A stretch of 64,000 nucleotides of DNA from a virus. The position numbers and the translations under genes are program-made. Where the stretch lies: positions 30,101 to 94,100 of IMG/VR virus record IMGVR_UViG_3300032242_001916. One strand, given 5' to 3'. Position 1 is the first letter of the stretch. The number at the start of each line of letters is the position of its first letter. Positions 1 to 46,200 of the stretch are shown here, one piece after another. The notes under the pieces were generated by a model. The model was not told the origin of the DNA, did not search any database, and saw only the letters and a program-made list of their open reading frames with translations.

Positions 1-319
1 ACGCGAAGTCTACACATTCCTGAGCGGTAGCGTCATCTTCCAACTGATTGAACGCCCAAGCAGACCACATAAGAAGGGTGGCGCTACGAGCGACTGACTT
101 CTTACCCATAACGGCAAGGCGGTCAGACAGTCTTCCAGTAACCTGAGTAATCCACTGTTCACCCTGACCAGCAATAACGCTAGCAATACGAGGTACAGCA
201 ACGACAATACCAAGACCGAGGACCTCAATAATGAGTTCCGCAGTTACTAGGTCTGCGTTAGTAGCGGTAGGGTTCACAACAGGTGCTGCTCCCTCTGTCT
301 TTAAAGATGTGTTAGCCAC
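1..319 (-). CDS. Hypothetical protein, 3'-truncated by the window edge (MANTSLKTEGAAPVVNPT...), not in the ORF track
   Basis: GTG at 319 preceded by AAAGGAG (333-327); 106 open codons to the window edge. Confidence 0.75.
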   Translation of the reverse strand, partial: MANTSLKTEGAAPVVNPTATNADLVTAELIIEVLGLGIVVAVPRIASVIAGQGEQWITQVTGRLSDRLAVMGKKSVARSATLLMWSAWAFNQLEDDATAQECVDFA

Positions 320-364
320 GGCTAAACTCCTTTGTGACAACTACGCGCACAGTGTGTGAGCGTA

Positions 365-399
365 TGGTGATACGGACTGGACTTGAACCAGCCCGTACC
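365..399 (-). ncRNA. tRNA-like minihelix (acceptor stem + T-arm + ACCA)
   Basis: Minus strand reads GGTACGG GCTGG TTCAAGT CCAGT CCGTATC ACCA: 7+5 bp continuous helix, 7-nt TTC loop, ACCA end. Confidence 0.6.
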
Positions 400-428
400 G
401 AGAGAGAGGTTATTGTGTGTTCTGGTGT

Positions 429-458
429 AATGTAGAGACGGAACAGTTGTTCGGTCAT
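429..458 (-). promoter_or_regulatory. Putative SigA-like promoter for the leftward transcript
   Basis: ATGACC-N18-TACATT on the minus strand upstream of the minihelix. Confidence 0.35.
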
Positions 459-741
459 ACCCCCTGCCCAGTTATTTTTGGACAGCAAAAAGGGCAGACT
501 ATTCCTAGCCTACCCAGAACAAGTTTTTCAACTTCGTAGTTGATAATAATTATTTATTACCCCCCCACCGTTAAATAACAATTTTTTATCATATTGGCCA
601 GGTGAGACAAGTTACCAGGACCTTTTGGGCTGTACAGTGGCCCAATCTATGATCATAGAATGCACGGAGCACATTTTGCGGGTAGCTCAAATTTTTCAGG
701 GTTTAGGCGTTTTTAGGCAGTGGCTACTTTAAGATAGGTGT

Positions 742-10251: not shown

Positions 10252-10685
10252 TGAGTAAATTACCTGAAGAGTTAAAAGAACTTTTGGCTGATGTTACTGT
10301 CTTTTACTTCCGTACCCACGGTTATCATTGGAATGTTGAGGGCGAAGATTTTGCCGCTTACCATGAATTATTTGAAAATATCTACGAAGATGTGTATAGT
10401 AGTATAGATCCAATTGCGGAAAATATTCGTAAGTTAGACGAGTACGCTCCGTTCAAATTAGATACACTAATAAAGTTGGCCTCGCTAGAAGATAGCAAGG
10501 TTCCGACCAAACCGGTGGCAATGGCAAAAGATTTGCTTAGTGCCAACGGTGAGGTAATCGAAAAACTAAAATCGGTTTTTCATACCGCTAATGATGCTGA
10601 CGAGCAAGGAATTGCTAACTTCATCGCGGAGAGAATTGACATGCATCAGAAATGGGCATGGCAACTCAAGGCTAGCACAAAATAA
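10251..10685 (+). CDS. dps: Dps / ferritin-like protein
   Basis: HWNVEG, HELFE..Y, D.IAE.IR, K..WQL ferroxidase signature. Confidence 0.9.
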   Translation: MSKLPEELKELLADVTVFYFRTHGYHWNVEGEDFAAYHELFENIYEDVYSSIDPIAENIRKLDEYAPFKLDTLIKLASLEDSKVPTKPVAMAKDLLSANGEVIEKLKSVFHTANDADEQGIANFIAERIDMHQKWAWQLKASTK

Positions 10686-28786: not shown

Positions 28787-30910
28787 ATGGCTGCATTCGG
28801 TCGTCCCGGCGTATATGTACAGGAAACTGCTGTACCTCAAAATATCGCCATTCAAGACAGATCAGACGCTATTGCGGGCTTTATTGGTGCTCTTCCTAAG
28901 GGCCCAACAGTTCCAACGTTTGTAAATTCATGGTCTAACTTTGTCAAGCTTTATGGCAATCTAGACTACTCATTCCCAACAAGTGTTGCGGTTTACCAAT
29001 TTTTTACAAATGGTGGCCGCGATGCATACATTGACCGAGCTGTAAATTCAACCTCTGCTGCGGCAAGTATTCCTTTAACAAGCTCTGACGCTGCAACAGC
29101 TTTGACAGTTACTGCAAAGAGCGTAGGTTCTTGGGGTAATCAAATTTCGGTTGAAGCAATTGCTTATGGAAACCCAGTTAATAACCGTTTTTCCATTGTA
29201 GTATATGGTCAGCCATACACTACCGGTGCCGGCTTACGCTCAAACGTTTTGGAGCAATTCAATGATCTTAGTGCAACAAGCACCGATAGTCGCTATGCTG
29301 TAACATTAATTAATAACACCTCAGCATATATTACTGTAGCTGCTTCGGGTACAGGTCTTCCGGCTCCTGACGCTATTGTGCATAGTTTAGCTGGCGGTAC
29401 TGACGTAGCTATTGCAACTACCGACATTGTTTCTGCATTAACTGGGTTTGATAATATCAACACACCTTTGTTGCTTAACGCCCCTGATCTTGCTTACGTA
29501 GGCTCTACTTCAGTGCAGGGTAACTTTACACGTTCAAACGTAATTTCTGCAGTTGGTAGCATCCTTAAATACGCAGAATACCGCGGTGATGCATTTGCTA
29601 TAGTTGATACTCCAAATCTAGCTTCGGCATTTGATGCAATTAACTTTGCTACAGACGCTTCTTACTCAGCAGCTACTGCTGGAGCATCCACAATTAGTTC
29701 AAATATTTCTTCGGTTACCCCAGGTACTCAAGGATCTACCACAGCTGCTGGATACGTAACTTACACAACTACCTCGGCACATAGCTTTGTCCCGACTCAA
29801 CCAGTAACTATTACAAATGTAACTCGTGAACCTGCTCTAAATGCTAGTGCTACACTAGCCGTATTACCATCTACTCCTTCTACAGGACAGGTAAAATACG
29901 TTACTGCTGCTTCACATGGCTTTAAAACTGGTGATTTAGTAACAATCAGTGGTATTACAGGAACTGTTGGAACTACGTACAACTTTAGCACTGCTAAAGC
30001 AGTTACAGTTATTGATTCAACTTCGTTCTATGTAACCAGCGCTGTAACCGGCAGCCTAGCGTCAAACGCAGATACTTCAGCTGCTAAAGCAGTTAGCACT
30101 GGTTACAGTGGTACTTACACCATCTATTCAACTCCTACAAACTCACAGTTTGTAATTGCTAATGCTGAAACTGGTACCGCTACACTAACAGGTGCCTCTG
30201 CATCAGTTCCTACAAGCACCGGCTCTACTCCATGGACTGGTGTTTCTGCAACAGGTGCTAATGCAGCCATGTATTACCCGTGGTTGGTTGTTCCTGATAC
30301 ACGAGGTACTCCTGGCAATACAATTACTATACCTACTGGTGGAGCTATTATAGGTAAATTCCAGGCAACAGATGCTTCTCGTGGAGTATTTAAGACTCCG
30401 GCAGGTTACCAGACCAGTATTGCTGGTGCTGTTAGCCTTGGTGCATCACTATCTAATAGTGATCTTGATGCTCTTAATTCTTCAACAGTGCCTGTAAATG
30501 CGCTTCGTACATATCCAGGAGCAGGAATTGTTGTAATGGGTGGACGCACAATGTCTACTTTGGCAGCAAACCGCTACATTAACACACGACGTTCGTTAAT
30601 TTACTTAAAGAAGGAACTAAGACTGCGTACTTCATATGCAATCTTTGAGAACAATGATGCCTACTTATGGAATTCAATTACTAATGCATTGAACTCATTC
30701 TTAGGAAATTATTGGGCACAAGGAGGACTTCGTGGAAATTCTCCATTTAAAGCCTTCTACGTAAAGTGCGATTCAACTACTACTACAGATACTGACGTAG
30801 TAAACGGTCGTGTAAACGTACAAGTAGGTGTGGCTCTGGAATACCCTGCAGAGTTCATCGTCATCAACATTGGTCAGTTCACCGGCGGCACGTCTGTGAC
30901 TCAGGGTTAA
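28787..30910 (+). CDS. Contractile tail sheath protein
   Basis: RPGVYVQE, FFTNGG, AMYYPW, RGVFKTPAG, RYINTRR, PAEFIVI. Confidence 0.95.
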   Translation: MAAFGRPGVYVQETAVPQNIAIQDRSDAIAGFIGALPKGPTVPTFVNSWSNFVKLYGNLDYSFPTSVAVYQFFTNGGRDAYIDRAVNSTSAAASIPLTSSDAATALTVTAKSVGSWGNQISVEAIAYGNPVNNRFSIVVYGQPYTTGAGLRSNVLEQFNDLSATSTDSRYAVTLINNTSAYITVAASGTGLPAPDAIVHSLAGGTDVAIATTDIVSALTGFDNINTPLLLNAPDLAYVGSTSVQGNFTRSNVISAVGSILKYAEYRGDAFAIVDTPNLASAFDAINFATDASYSAATAGASTISSNISSVTPGTQGSTTAAGYVTYTTTSAHSFVPTQPVTITNVTREPALNASATLAVLPSTPSTGQVKYVTAASHGFKTGDLVTISGITGTVGTTYNFSTAKAVTVIDSTSFYVTSAVTGSLASNADTSAAKAVSTGYSGTYTIYSTPTNSQFVIANAETGTATLTGASASVPTSTGSTPWTGVSATGANAAMYYPWLVVPDTRGTPGNTITIPTGGAIIGKFQATDASRGVFKTPAGYQTSIAGAVSLGASLSNSDLDALNSSTVPVNALRTYPGAGIVVMGGRTMSTLAANRYINTRRSLIYLKKELRLRTSYAIFENNDAYLWNSITNALNSFLGNYWAQGGLRGNSPFKAFYVKCDSTTTTDTDVVNGRVNVQVGVALEYPAEFIVINIGQFTGGTSVTQG

Positions 30911-32414: not shown

Positions 32415-32577
32415 TAATAAAGAAATTTATAAATACTTATTGGATTCATATGAACTTATAAGTAGGGCCTTTGTAGGCTGGTCTCTTAAAGAGATTAGAG
32501 AGCTTAGCCACAGGGAACGTGAAAACTGGTTGCAAAGGGCAACCTTAAAACTAGGACTAGGAGACATAAATGGCTGA
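32404..32577 (+). CDS. +1-frame extension of the chaperone (FGFDNKEIYKYLLDSYELISRAFVGWSLKEIRELSHRERENWL...)
   Basis: Open +1 frame filling the gap to the tape measure gene; GWS..EI..L..RER..W motif; no ATG or GTG. Confidence 0.65.
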   Translation, partial: FGFDNKEIYKYLLDSYELISRAFVGWSLKEIRELSHRERENWLQRATLKLGLGDING

Positions 32578-35500
32578 TCCAACAGCAGGCCTTACTCCTC
32601 CTATGTCAGGATCTACAGGTTCGATTTCTCCCGTTAGTTCCGGAACTGCCGGTTCTAGCGGGAGTAAATCCCTGTATGTTAGAACCCTTGAACAGGGCTA
32701 CAACGTTATTGCAAAAACGTCTGCTATGTACGATCGTATTTTACGAACTACTAAAGAGATAAATAAAGAAAACGGTAAGCGCGGCGGAGTTGGTGGCGGC
32801 AGCACCAATATGTTTGCTAATTCAGGTGTTAATCAGCAAGCTGATGCAATGATGAATAAGCTCAACGAAATGATCCCAGCTTCTGGTATGAGTGCCGGAG
32901 GAAGAGCGGCTGTTGGGGCTGGTCAAACCGCTTTAGCCGCAGCTGGATTTATGTATTCTACACTTCCCAATGTACAAGATGCCGTATCTCAAAGAATTTC
33001 TGCACAAAGTGTTGCATCTTTGACAGGGCAAAGTGCACAAAGCGTAATAAATAGTAGTAATGCCCTTATAAAAGGTGGTATGACAGGTAACTACTCAGCG
33101 CAGTTGGCGGCACACTCTCTTGCAAGTGTAGGTGTTTATGGCACGGGTTACACTAATATTATGAGTCAAGTAGGCGGTCTTAGCGCTTTAACTGGTATGC
33201 AAAATGAGCAGGTAGCTGGAGCATACGGTGGCATTAACAGTATGAACTTTATGAGACTTGGAGTTCGTGCTCGTGATCGCCAGGGTAATATACGAGGCCC
33301 TAGTGATATCTCTAATGAACTTTACCAAAGATTAGTAGGTAAAAGAAAACTTACAATACAACAAGCAGGCAACACAATTCTTGCCCCACACTCTAGTGGT
33401 CAAATGGCAATTCAAGCAGCTGCGGGTGGAGATCAAGCATTAGCTGCAAGCTTGACAGAACAACTGTATTTTCAGGCACGCAATGGTGGAAAAAAGTTAC
33501 CACTAGGGGACCCTGAAAAAATTATGGGCAAAAAAGTTCTTAATCTTTCTGCAGACGACCCATTGCGTAAAATGTTTACTTACAATAAGCGTCAGTCTGA
33601 ATACTTACAGGCTGTGGGTGGGTCGGAAGTAGGCGGCTACGGTACTGCTTTAGATGCCAGCGGTAAGGTTGCTGAAGGAATGGCCGGACTAGCTAAAGTA
33701 ATGCCCGACGTTGTTGGTGGTATGGCTAGACTTGCAGGTCTTTTACAAACTCTTCCTGGAGCCGGTAATACAGGACTAGGATTAGCAAGTTTAGCTAGCG
33801 GAGTGGGCGGCTCTGGAACTAATATGCTTCAAATGGGTATGGAAGCCCGTGCAATAACCATGCTTGGGCGAGGAGGTGGCGGTACTCCTGGGGCAGTTGG
33901 CGGAAGAGGTATGGCAGGGTCTACTGGTGCACGCGTTCTTGGTCGGGGTCTTGGAGGACTAGCAGCTATACAAGCTACAAATATGGCAGTCCCATTTTTA
34001 CGTCAGCAAGGGCAAAAACACCTTCATATTAAGCCAGGTAGTGCTGTAGATAAAACGGGTACAATTCTTGGTACCGCAGGTGGATATGCTGCTGGTGGGG
34101 CAATGATTGGATCTGTAATACCCGGAATTGGAACAGCAGCTGGAGCAGTAGTTGGAGGTCTAGCTGGATTAGCCGTTGGTTTTATGAATTCTAATAACTC
34201 ACCTGTTGGTGGAGATGGAATTACAGGCCCGCTTAGTTGGGCGCAAACGTTATTAAAACAGATGTCTATTACCCCTAAAAATTCTGGAATTGACAATGCT
34301 ATAGCTAACTGGGAAGCACATGAAGGCGGCCATTGGGGAAATTCTGCAAGATATAACCCACTAAATACTTCTCAAAGAATGCTTCCATCCGACACAAACA
34401 TGAACTCAGATGGAGTTAAAGTGTACTCCAGTTGGTCTGAGGGACTTCAAGCCACTGTTAAAACTCTTCATTCTAAAGGGCATCATTATGAAAGAATTAT
34501 TGATGCAATGAGTAGTGGTAAACCTGATGACCTTTACCAAGCGGTTGTAGATTCAAAGTGGGGAACTACATCTCTTATGGGCCACGTAAAAAGTAAGGGG
34601 TCTCACAAAAAAACTGGAAAACCTCACGTAAATAATGGCGTGTACAACCCTCCAGCTAATGGTCCAAAAACCGCACACTTTGGTCAAAAACCACGGGTAA
34701 AAGGAAAGTATTGGACACAGTACGGGTATCATACTGGTCAAGATTACGGAGTTCCAGTAGGAACTTCTGTTAAAGCTTATAAAGCAGGAAAAGTTATACA
34801 TGCAGGCGATGGTGGCAGTAGAGCAGACCTTGGATCAGCTTGGGGTAAGGCAATCCTTGTAGATCATGGTACTCATAGAAGCCTTTATGCCCACCTGTCT
34901 CATGTTGGAGTAAGAGCAGGAGACAAAGTAAGGCCTGGTCAGCAAATTGCTTTGTCAGGTAATACTGGGTCTGCTTCGCAAGGTCCACACTTACACTTTG
35001 AAATTAGAAAAGGTGGAAAGCCTGTAGACCCAATTCCTTATCTTGGAGGCGGTAGTAGTGGTAGTTTAACTCCTCCATCTTCAACTCCAAATCCAACTCC
35101 AGGATCCTCTCCAGCCCCATCAACAGGGACTACTTCTACAAACAACTTTACTACTTGGGGAACAGGCGTTGCCCCAGGAACTCATGGAGGAACTCATGGA
35201 GGAACTCATGGAGGAACTCACAAAGCATCTGTACCTCCGTCTTCAGCTGGGCCTGCAGCTGGAGTTGTAAACACACCTAGTAGTTCAGTAGTAGTTACTA
35301 ATACAAAGCCTAGAATGCTTACTACTAGCGCAGGTCTGACTAATGCGGCTGCAGCAGCAACTCAGCTTTCTGTAAGTAATCTTGGGGTTTCATCTGGGTA
35401 TGGATCTGTAAATACTGCTTTAGGTGGAAGCTCTATTTTTAGCGCTAACTACGAGCAAGCGGATTATAGTGGATTTGGTGGAGATGCTAATCCACCTAGT

Positions 35501-43200: not shown

Positions 43201-46200
43201 ATGGCCTTATATGGTAAGTACCGCTATGGTCTACCTCTTTATGGCGCTTTTGATAGTAGCGCAGTTAACAACATCTCCTACAATGCGTCGTTAACCGCAA
43301 TACAGAATGATTATGGAATCATTGAATTAATGTGGGGAACTGTAACTATTGATAGTACAGATACCGCAATTACTGACTGGAAAATTATCAGAACTGTGGG
43401 CGGTGCCCCTGACTACCCAAATACATTTACACCAGTAGTTGTATATGGAACTACTTCAGTAACCTCTAATGGAGGTAGTTCATATTCTTTAAGATACACT
43501 GATTATCAAAGTAATATTATAACTTCAAACACTTATACTTTTTTTGAAAATTACTTTCCTTCTGGAACGCAAGTAACTTATTCTCTTTGGGTATTCAATG
43601 GATTGCGTTGGATATTTGCAGGCCTTGCTGATCAAATTATTACGGGCGTAACTGAAACTACCGATAAAGTTTTGCGAATGCTACCTGCAGCTTGGACAAA
43701 CTCAGTTGGTGGCACTGGCGATATAACCGGCTATCCAAGCAGATATGATGATTCAACAAATACAGTTTTTAAAATTAACTCTGTTACTCCTAATTCTCCA
43801 AGTCGGGGGTACGTAACCTACACCACAACAACTTCAATGCCCATAAAATACTATGGACAGTATGCTTTGATTTCTGGAATAAGCATAGACGGATATAACG
43901 GTAACTATAATATAATTTTTAAAGACTCTAATACATTTTTTGCTGTAAATAATACGACTAATATTTCAGGTTTAGATCTTAGCGGTGCAACCGTAAGCGT
44001 TGCAGAAGAGACTTCTCTTTGGAAGTTTCTTAGTGGGTTTACTTTCTATTACGATAGATTGCGTACCGAAGTAAGTCTTATTGACACTATTAGTGACTAT
44101 AGACATACCCCATACAATATGCTTCCACTAGCAATCCAAACTCAAGGTTTTAATTACCGACAAGATTTAGGAACAAGTTACCTACGATCTATGCATAGAG
44201 TTGGCCATAGAATTAACTCTTTAAAAGGTACTGAAATTGGTCTAAAAATGTATGTGGGGTCTTTATTAAGCTCTTATTCAAGAAGATACCAATCTACAAA
44301 TTTATTTCTAAACTATAACGATTCTTCTTTTGAAGAATCTATAGGTAACTGGGATATAAATGACGGTAATACTTTTAGCGCAAAAAAATATGCAAACGCA
44401 GTTACTGACTTAGGTGTTGGTTATTCTACGTTATCTTCTCCTCTAAGGGATGGCCTTACTTTAGGAAAGATCATAAAGACAGCAGGCTATGGACTAATTA
44501 CTTCTGCCGGAACTTCTGACATTGTTTTAACTTCTTATAAAATTCCTGAATACACAATTTCTACTGTAACCCCCAACTCTCCATCAACGGGGTATGTAAC
44601 TTATGCCACGTCAACACCGACTAAATACAGAGATGATAATAGTGTGTATATCTCTGGCGTATCTCCGTCAGGGTATTCAGGTAGTTTTAACGTAACAATG
44701 TTGGACTCAAGCAGTTTTTATGTAAGAAACACTACTACTGCAACTCCAACTCTTTCTAGCGCAAAAATTAGGTCGTCTGTTTCAATACCTACAATTACAA
44801 GGACTATCCCAATAACAGGTGGAAGATCCTACATATTAACAGGCTACATACAAAAACTAACTGGAAACACTGGAGCTGCTAACGTAGCCGCTCAGATTAA
44901 TTGGTATGATAATCAGGGATACCCTATAAACACAAATACTGCCTATTCTACCGCAGTAACTATTGGTACGTCTTGGACTCTATTTACTTCTTCTTCAAGT
45001 TCTCCAAACTATATAGCACCGTCCAATGCCGCGTATGCTTCAGTAAATATTAAAATTACCAGCCCGGCAAATACGGATAAGTTTATTATTGACATGCTTA
45101 GCTTTACAGAAATGTCTGAAAGTACTCTCAACAGCATTGAATATATACCAATTGAAACAATGTTTGAAGAAGCAAATTCAACTGTTTTAGAAATAGATGG
45201 ATTTAGAACAAACCTTATTACTAACCCCGGTTTTAGTGAAGGTGTAGGTAGCTGGAGTACTCTTAATGGTTCGCTAATACAAGATTTTACTACTAGTACC
45301 TATGGAAATAGCTGCGCTAAATTTACTCCTACAAGCTCTGGAGCAGCTGTATCTTCAAACTGGATAGAAGTAACTCCTGGAGAATATTACACTTTCAGTG
45401 TTTATGTAAAATCTTCTTTAGCAAATAAAAGTGCAAAAATTGCTATTGAATTTAGTATTCCATCTGATACAGATCTTGATTCAGCTATTACAACCAGTGC
45501 AAATGGACCTTATTACAACCCAACAATAAATAAGACGTACTCTTCTTTAACTCCAATAAGTAATACCCAATTTACTAGGGTTAGTGTTAAAGCCAAAGCA
45601 CCAGGTTTTTCACCTATTATCGGTGTTCCAAAAGCAATAGTATCTATAGAACCTGATGGATATACTGCAGGTCAAAGTTGGTTTATAGATAGCGTTTTAT
45701 TTGAAAAGAACGCGCTATTATTGCCTTACTTCCAAGGAGACGGCGGACCTACCCCTACAGGAACTAATCTTTATACAGCTATTCATACTCCTGCTAATGA
45801 TTGTATTTGGGAAGTTAGGCCACGTGCTAACTTTGTTTATAATCCGTCTTTTGAAAATGGAATCACTAGTTTTTACACACCTAGTTTTACAGGAACAAGC
45901 GGCTCAGCAACACTAACCTCAATAACTACTGAAACTGTAGGGGGTTTAACTTTTGCTCCTAAACCTAGTACAGGCACAAGTTACTTTGGAAAAATTGCTA
46001 CAAATTCAACTACTACATCTTCAACAATACTAACTTCATTTAGGTATCCATACATGACTACGTCTAGTGGTATTCCTAATAGCCCTGCAGGTGGAGAATC
46101 TTTTGCTGCATCAGCTTATGTAACTTCAGCAGTAGCTGGAACGTACACCATTACATTTACAGATGTAACTAGTGGCATAACTTACTCAAATTCATTTACG

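Follow-up and report, generated by a model that had tools for sequence, protein, structure and literature searches.

Does a phage encode the acceptor half of a tRNA as a signal in one of its own messages, or is such a fragment something that a tRNA gene, an integration site or chance would leave in a genome? Minihelices, made of the acceptor stem and T arm of a tRNA, are the laboratory minimal tRNA model for RNase P, RNase Z, the CCA-adding enzyme, EF-Tu and several aminoacyl-tRNA synthetases. The question is raised by 35 nucleotides found in front of an early gene of an uncultured freshwater phage of 94 kb. The window, by which we mean the whole 64,000-nt stretch of DNA analysed, comprises bases 30101–94100 of a 94,100-bp record with a 123-bp terminal overlap and a G+C content of 42.6%.

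The phage and its host

The genome is complete, with direct terminal repeats and a value of 100% by CheckV. It encodes a T4-type terminase, an SPP1-type portal, a tail sheath and baseplate J, together with a family A DNA polymerase, DnaB, RecA, a class II ribonucleotide reductase and an AAA/VWA pair; this gene set identifies a contractile-tailed phage (myovirus). Relatives with a 75–91% identical terminase number hundreds in IMG/VR. The nearest cultured phages by terminase are Streptomyces phages of the BRock type (53%) and, from terminase similarity alone, the host is probably actinobacterial. No RNase P RNA, CCA-adding enzyme or RNA ligase was found in the complete genome, so that host enzymes would have to act on any tRNA-like RNA that the phage makes; a search for RtcB was also negative. 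A closely related sequence, L102, is used for comparison in what follows.

Anatomy of the minihelix

Positions 399–365 of the minus strand read GGTACGG-GCTGG-TTCAAGT-CCAGT-CCGTATC-ACCA, 35 nt in all, exactly the string given in the initial annotation of this locus (Table 1). All of the pairs form (12/12), two of them as wobbles (G2–U71 and G49–U65), with 0 nt between the two stems and with neither a D arm nor an anticodon arm. The anatomy first described, of 7 + 5 bp with two G–U pairs, a T-loop, a discriminator A and CCA, is thus fully confirmed. The loop matches TTCRANY, and with its flanks it matches GGTTCRANYCC; this T-arm motif, GGTTCAAGTCC, occupies positions 389–379 in the sense orientation, 45 nt 5′ of the start codon. 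By its features the element is an RNase P substrate of the minihelix type, having a 12-bp stack, a 7-nt T-loop, G1–C72, an unpaired N−1 and a 3′ RCCA, the base at −1 being a C that is unable to pair with A73. The wobble lies at 2:71 and pair 3:70 is U–A, so that the AlaRS-type G3:U70 pair is absent.

Table 1 Positions in the window of the minihelix and of the features around it
Feature	Position	Strand	Basis or remark
tRNA minihelix	365..399	−	Sequence and fold; identical in L102:980-1014
Acceptor 5′ strand	399-393	−	Read from sequence
T-stem 5′ side	392-388	−	Read from sequence
T-loop TTCAAGT	387-381	−	Read from sequence
T-stem 3′ side	380-376	−	Read from sequence
Acceptor 3′ strand	375-369	−	Read from sequence
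Discriminator A73	368	−	Read from sequence
Encoded CCA	367-365	−	Read from sequence
CU-rich predicted short 5′ leader	400..421	−	Placed from the position of the TACATT −10-like hexamer
Putative promoter (ATGACC, 18 nt, TACATT)	429..458	−	Read from sequence
Terminator-like hairpin and T-run	482..515 (hairpin 515-492)	−	Terminator scan; fold −15.2 kcal/mol, z −5.2
23-nt hairpin directly 3′ of the CCA	342..364	−	−9.3 kcal/mol
Shine-Dalgarno AAGGAG	332-327	−	Read from sequence
GTG start of downstream gene	319-317	−	Read from sequence
5′ part of the P0001 gene	1..319	−	Runs past the window start to genome position 29832

Fold, strand and chance

The 35-mer folds with −20.9 kcal/mol (z −6.7), and the fold accounts for 94% of the ensemble. 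The complementary strand reaches only −11.4 kcal/mol, the two wobbles turning into A–C mismatches there, and because the complement folds so much worse we assign the minihelix to RNA of the minus strand, which is the strand of the downstream gene. It is present in both the MFE and the centroid folds of the 171-nt leader.

Perfect hairpins of 12 bp with a 7-nt loop occur nine times in the genome, and one of the nine, the minihelix, combines TTCRANY with NCCA. The joint chance of these two motifs is 1/1024 × 1/64 per hairpin, or ~1.5e-5, which amounts to ~1e-4 genome-wide. By our own arithmetic a few such chance cases are expected over hundreds of thousands of windows, and for this reason the context of the minihelix matters. 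The same figures bear on the reading that it is a plain structural hairpin, a 5′ stabiliser or a protein-binding or pause site whose likeness to tRNA was inherited and is irrelevant. In its favour are the high stability of the helix, its place close to the 5′ end of a message and the eight other 12-bp hairpins in the genome, but a stabiliser needs no consensus T-loop, no exact set of 12 pairs and no ACCA tail, and the low joint chance per hairpin also stands against it; we consider it improbable.

The minihelix is a single copy in this genome, and no second one, at up to one mismatch, emerged from a structural scan of 1.4 Mb of DNA from related phages. The scan for further copies suggested with the initial annotation therefore yields none in either, and the covariation that it was hoped to bring is absent. 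A canonical tRNA gene was rejected: ARAGORN called only a tRNA-Asn in the window and no tRNA at 365–399, the Rfam tRNA model did not match there even with permissive thresholds, and the stems directly abut. The only Rfam match obtained at the minihelix with permissive thresholds was the mascRNA-menRNA family (RF01684), at 18.3 bits (E 0.19) against a gathering threshold of 42.5 bits; the middle 25 model positions are deleted in this sub-threshold match, and it was rejected as well. Rfam has no family for minihelices in phage leaders.

The leader and its transcription unit

G1 of the minihelix lies ~22 nt 3′ of a weak promoter-like pair of hexamers, in which the initial annotation had seen a putative promoter. 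The hexamers at 458–429 are legible, but a sigma-70 consensus scan does not call them, and the assignment is still a guess; the −35-like hexamer differs in L102, and a search for a repeated promoter motif in the leader found none. Of the predicted short 5′ leader, positions 400–418 are invariant between the window and L102. Further upstream, the terminator-like hairpin is predicted to shield the unit from upstream transcription, and it sits in a 36-nt run, 483–518, that is also invariant between the two sequences. On the other side of the minihelix only 4 single-stranded nucleotides separate it from the 23-nt hairpin, in which an A-to-G change in L102 retains a G–U pair and the outer 5 pairs are unchanged. 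The Shine-Dalgarno sequence and GTG start previously assigned to the gene at 319 are borne out. The gene encodes P0001, an orphan protein of 195 residues that has a single hydrophobic helix and belongs to no family in Pfam or PHROG; the gene ends at a clear terminator. With this terminator 3′ of the gene and the other upstream (515–492), the unit appears to be monocistronic.

The minihelix is non-coding. A 58-residue open reading frame that overlaps it contains a stop in L102 and the differences between the two sequences have no third-position bias; a coding reading was rejected on the broken frame. We also rejected an intrinsic terminator, as the helix is followed by ACCAUACGC and not by a U-run, and the terminator scan lists only 515–492 in the region.

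Several other features were observed around the leader. Between the divergent gene starts, on the minus strand of window positions 482–741, there are ~225 nt without a credible open reading frame, closed by the terminator 515–492, which may be a small RNA or an attenuator; the CTGCCC of the terminator is also able to pair with GGGCAG at 469–464. The divergent control region holds a perfect 14-bp palindrome, TCTATGATCATAGA, at window positions 646–659, with near copies at genome positions 45151–45162 and 10371–10384, and this could be an operator. A hairpin predicted at 303–335 (minus strand) pairs the Shine-Dalgarno region with codons 5–6, with the GTG start in the upper part of the hairpin; L102 allows a comparable pairing despite an ATG start and different first codons.

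Conservation in related phages

Homologues of P0001 are rare: only two were found among 5.8 billion proteins. The more distant one, P0003, is 61% identical and is encoded on a JGI contig of 2,738 bp; the contig of P0002 has 5,119 bp. The gene in L102 is 88% identical and its leader ~90% identical, and the 35 nt of the minihelix are unchanged. Over 422 non-coding bases the window and L102 differ at 42 (10%), from which ~3.8 changes would be expected in the minihelix where 0 are observed; the probability that 35 nt would go unchanged is 0.018. The minihelix lies within the longest invariant run, of 63 nt (356–418), and the second longest is that of the terminator; a run of 63 nt somewhere in the region has a p of ~0.05 by our estimate, so that it is marginally longer than expected by chance. 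The comparison of the two sequences thus lends modest support to a constraint on the minihelix. Whether loop and CCA are kept in homologous leaders was one of the checks proposed initially, and both are unchanged in L102; this one homologous leader is too close to the window and, being invariant over the minihelix, offers no covariation.

Nine near-complete or long relatives (G001–G010 except G005, for which the search covered the gene only) are without the gene, without the leader or without either, an absence that we attribute to a hypervariable early region. Relatives with a 75–90% identical terminase lack both the P0001 gene and the minihelix, and scans of IMG/VR for the gene or for its neighbour gave no match. 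One of the nine, G001 (the record of L015), contains at ~2637–2685 on the plus strand a candidate mimic of the top half of a tRNA, made of GTGCTAC, a 10-nt linker, ACAAG TTCGATT CTTGT and CTAGCAC A, which has one acceptor mismatch and lies 1.4 kb from the phage's own tRNA-Met.

Similarity to tRNA genes

The 3′ half of the minihelix resembles the 3′ halves of tRNA-Ile and tRNA-Met of the coliphage type (26/27 and 27/29 matches, respectively, with the ACCA included), and this resemblance makes an origin from a tRNA gene plausible. Another reading takes the minihelix for an attP core, which copies the 3′ end of a host tRNA for site-specific integration. A tRNA 3′ half with its CCA is what such a core would hold. 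Against this, the complete genome encodes no tyrosine or serine recombinase (PF00589, PF00239) and no resolvase, and the exact 22-mer of the 3′ half has no match in IMG/VR or in 185,579 species genomes. A degenerate pattern of the 3′ half (G52G53, T-loop, C61C62, NNN, CCGTATCA) occurs at 35 sites in these bacterial and archaeal genomes, about the chance expectation, and 0 of the 35 lie in a tRNA or tmRNA gene. Nor does an attP have any need for the complementary 5′ strand that adjoins the 3′ half here. A host tRNA 3′ end beside an integrase had been named at the outset as the finding that would argue for attachment; neither part of it was found, and within the genomes searched we reject the attP with near certainty. 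A primer for reverse transcriptase was rejected too, as the complete genome encodes no reverse transcriptase.

An inert relic is a more serious alternative. The minihelix would then be what remains of a tRNA gene whose middle (positions 8–48) was deleted, persisting because the two genomes are closely related. The likeness of its 3′ half to phage tRNA-Ile and tRNA-Met, ACCA included, speaks for this, as do its confinement to one lineage and the lack of covariation between two near-identical genomes. However, a deletion that leaves exactly 7 + 5 perfectly stacked pairs is unlikely without selection, the minihelix has changed less than its surroundings would predict, and it is oriented and placed as expected of a transcribed element. 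Neither the tRNAs of the relatives nor the 185,579 genomes yielded a donor tRNA. On balance, we regard a relic as doubtful.

A pattern of the minihelix with the same acceptor gave no match in IMG/VR. A contig of a Spirochaeta MAG (JAUVIY010000232.1; L114:3807-3836, plus strand) contains another natural minihelix of 12 bp. Its acceptor helix, GGTACGG/CCGTATC, is the same, its T-stem and loop are different (CCGGG TTCGACT CCCGG), and it has no CCA. It lies 5 nt 5′ of an AAGGAG between two membrane-protein genes and is kept in the MFE fold, and the Rfam mascRNA model (23.4 bits, sub-threshold) gives a cloverleaf-like alternative.

Predicted processing by RNase P

The reading that we prefer, tentatively and at somewhat less than even confidence, is that the minihelix is a t-element-like mimic, placed close to the 5′ end of a monocistronic early mRNA and cut at C400|G399 by host RNase P. 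After its transcription near the 5′ end of this message, the 12-bp helix of acceptor and T arm would fold, with its T-loop and an unpaired ACCA, and the cut by host RNase P would then take off ~20 nt of leader. Through the RCCA contact the encoded CCA would strengthen the binding of RNase P, and it would disfavour RNase Z. As CCA is an anti-determinant for RNase Z, and as only four unpaired bases follow before the next hairpin, the minihelix would more likely stay on the mRNA than be released from it, most likely as a fully paired 5′ end that would shield the message from nucleases needing a free 5′ end.

The orientation of the minihelix in the sense of the gene and its position 3′ of a strong terminator and 45 nt before the start codon favour this proposal, and a point against it is that in a monocistronic unit the cut would have no obvious role as punctuation. 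The hairpin directly after the CCA could also hinder the contact between RNase P and CCA. The initial annotation had suggested a substrate for host tRNA-processing enzymes, either cut in the early transcript or released as a mimic or decoy: the anatomy fits such a substrate, while cutting, release and decoy action are at the level of proposals. Its analogy with the use of RNase III by T7, in which a long early transcript is cut, is a poor fit to a unit that appears monocistronic.

What is known of the enzymes is compatible with cleavage. The RNA of E. coli RNase P cuts hairpins built from an acceptor stem, a T-stem and a T-loop, and it does so at the canonical site (PMC11143913); the cleavage of non-tRNA substrates by RNase P depends on a 3′ RCCA motif (PMC11143913; PMC12710915). 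The enzyme also processes phage M3 RNA, phage C4 RNA and some mRNAs (PMC11143913), and RNase Z, too, recognises chiefly the stack of acceptor and T stems (PMC3790967). In an actinobacterium, RNase P cuts a tRNA-like domain whose acceptor stem has 7 bp, and CCA is added to this domain in vivo (PMC4201824).

A neighbouring tRNA-like RNA and the possibility of release

A second tRNA-like RNA, also without an anticodon arm, is found 850 nt downstream of the minihelix on the same strand (L001:15592-15645, minus strand; genome positions 29591–29644, 457 nt before the window start). It is 54 nt long and lies between two terminators and not in an mRNA leader. The fold has an acceptor stem of 6 bp, a D-like arm containing GG and a T arm, and its tail is ACGA. 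L102 has C–G in place of G–C at the terminal pair and TTCGATT in place of TTCAATT in the T-loop; the compensatory change of the terminal pair indicates that the lineage keeps anticodon-less tRNA-like folds under selection. Neither this RNA nor any of the phage's three tRNAs has an encoded CCA, and CGA or CTA comes next instead; this makes the encoded CCA of the minihelix a special feature. In the non-coding stretch around the second RNA (L001:15400-15790, minus strand) the motif GTGTGGG/GTGGGG occurs at least 5 times.

The second RNA adds weight to the main functional rival of the mRNA-bound minihelix, namely that the minihelix is a product. RNase P would cut at the 5′ side and a second cut or trimming to A365 would give a 35-nt anticodon-less RNA acting in trans, which could be a decoy or competitor for readers of the acceptor end (tRNA-directed defence toxins, CCA-modifying enzymes, EF-Tu or synthetases) or a carrier. 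An encoded CCA that is confined to the minihelix and missing from the phage's tRNAs would suit this reading; the short, promoter-proximal position resembles that of a small RNA gene, and the second RNA, outside any leader and between terminators, suggests that tRNA-like RNAs are made as products. On the other hand, the 4 single-stranded nucleotides before the next hairpin offer a 3′ endonuclease no obvious place to cut, the acceptor stem carries neither an alanine-type G3:U70 nor any other identity set that we recognise, and no partner gene is evident. We think such a release unlikely. The narrower version, in which the 35-nt CCA-ended RNA and its 54-nt neighbour together would act in trans as decoys for acceptor-end factors (for example CCA-targeting abortive-infection toxins), or would be charged and used off the ribosome, is very unlikely in our view.

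Relation to known systems

Retention on the message after a cut by RNase P, the reading preferred here, can be compared with several known systems, and we found no description of such minihelices in phage leaders in the literature searched. If the proposal is true, this would be a natural, genome-encoded minihelix in a phage message, and phages would use the minimal tRNA recognition unit. The minihelix may be a small and very clean member of a wider, undescribed class. It would offer a clean 35-nt system in which to ask whether bacterial viruses use tRNA punctuation like that of mitochondria or a shaping of 5′ ends.

Two phage-encoded non-tRNA RNAs, M3 RNA of phi80 and the precursor of the C4 antisense RNA of P1/P7, are matured by host RNase P (PMC11143913). 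They are small regulatory or stable RNAs of coliphages and are unrelated in sequence to the phage minihelix. To our knowledge, neither is a 12-bp T-loop minihelix in front of an open reading frame.

The tRNA-like domains of YrlA/Y RNA and of tmRNA are also anticodon-less tRNA mimics that are recognised by tRNA enzymes, and YrlA of M. smegmatis is cut by RNase P and receives CCA (PMC4201824). YrlA/Y RNAs need the partner Ro60 and tmRNA needs an mRNA-like module. Both were rejected as identities for the phage minihelix, the former because the complete genome encodes no TROVE protein and Rfam gives no match, and the latter because ARAGORN finds no tmRNA in this phage. In a related 95.7-kb phage (G002, the record of L017) ARAGORN calls a tmRNA at 32563–32853, complement, with the tag ATQNAYALAA.

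The closest likeness in structure is to the synthetic acceptor/T-arm substrates of RNase P (McClain, Guerrier-Takada and Altman; reviewed in PMC11143913), which share the coaxial helix of 7 + 5 bp, the T-loop and the 3′ RCCA; the RNA subunit by itself cuts them at the canonical site (PMC11143913). These are laboratory constructs that end at the CCA, whereas the phage minihelix is encoded in a genome, in an mRNA leader and with a hairpin directly after it, and its cleavage is predicted.

In its setting, the minihelix resembles the t-elements of plant mitochondria, tRNA-like folds with GGTTCRANYCC in the leaders and trailers of mRNAs (Forner et al. 2007, PMC1920247). By directing cuts by RNase P and RNase Z they generate the ends of mRNAs, and simple acceptor-like stem-loops have also been proposed as signals (PMC1920247). 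The phage minihelix has likewise the T-arm motif within a tRNA-like fold, in the non-coding part of what would be an mRNA. The t-elements differ in being mostly degenerate cloverleaves of organelles with no encoded CCA, for some of which the ends have been mapped, while the phage minihelix is pure, has its CCA encoded and is known from its sequence alone. We propose that it would act like a t-element and that it looks like a synthetic RNase P minihelix.
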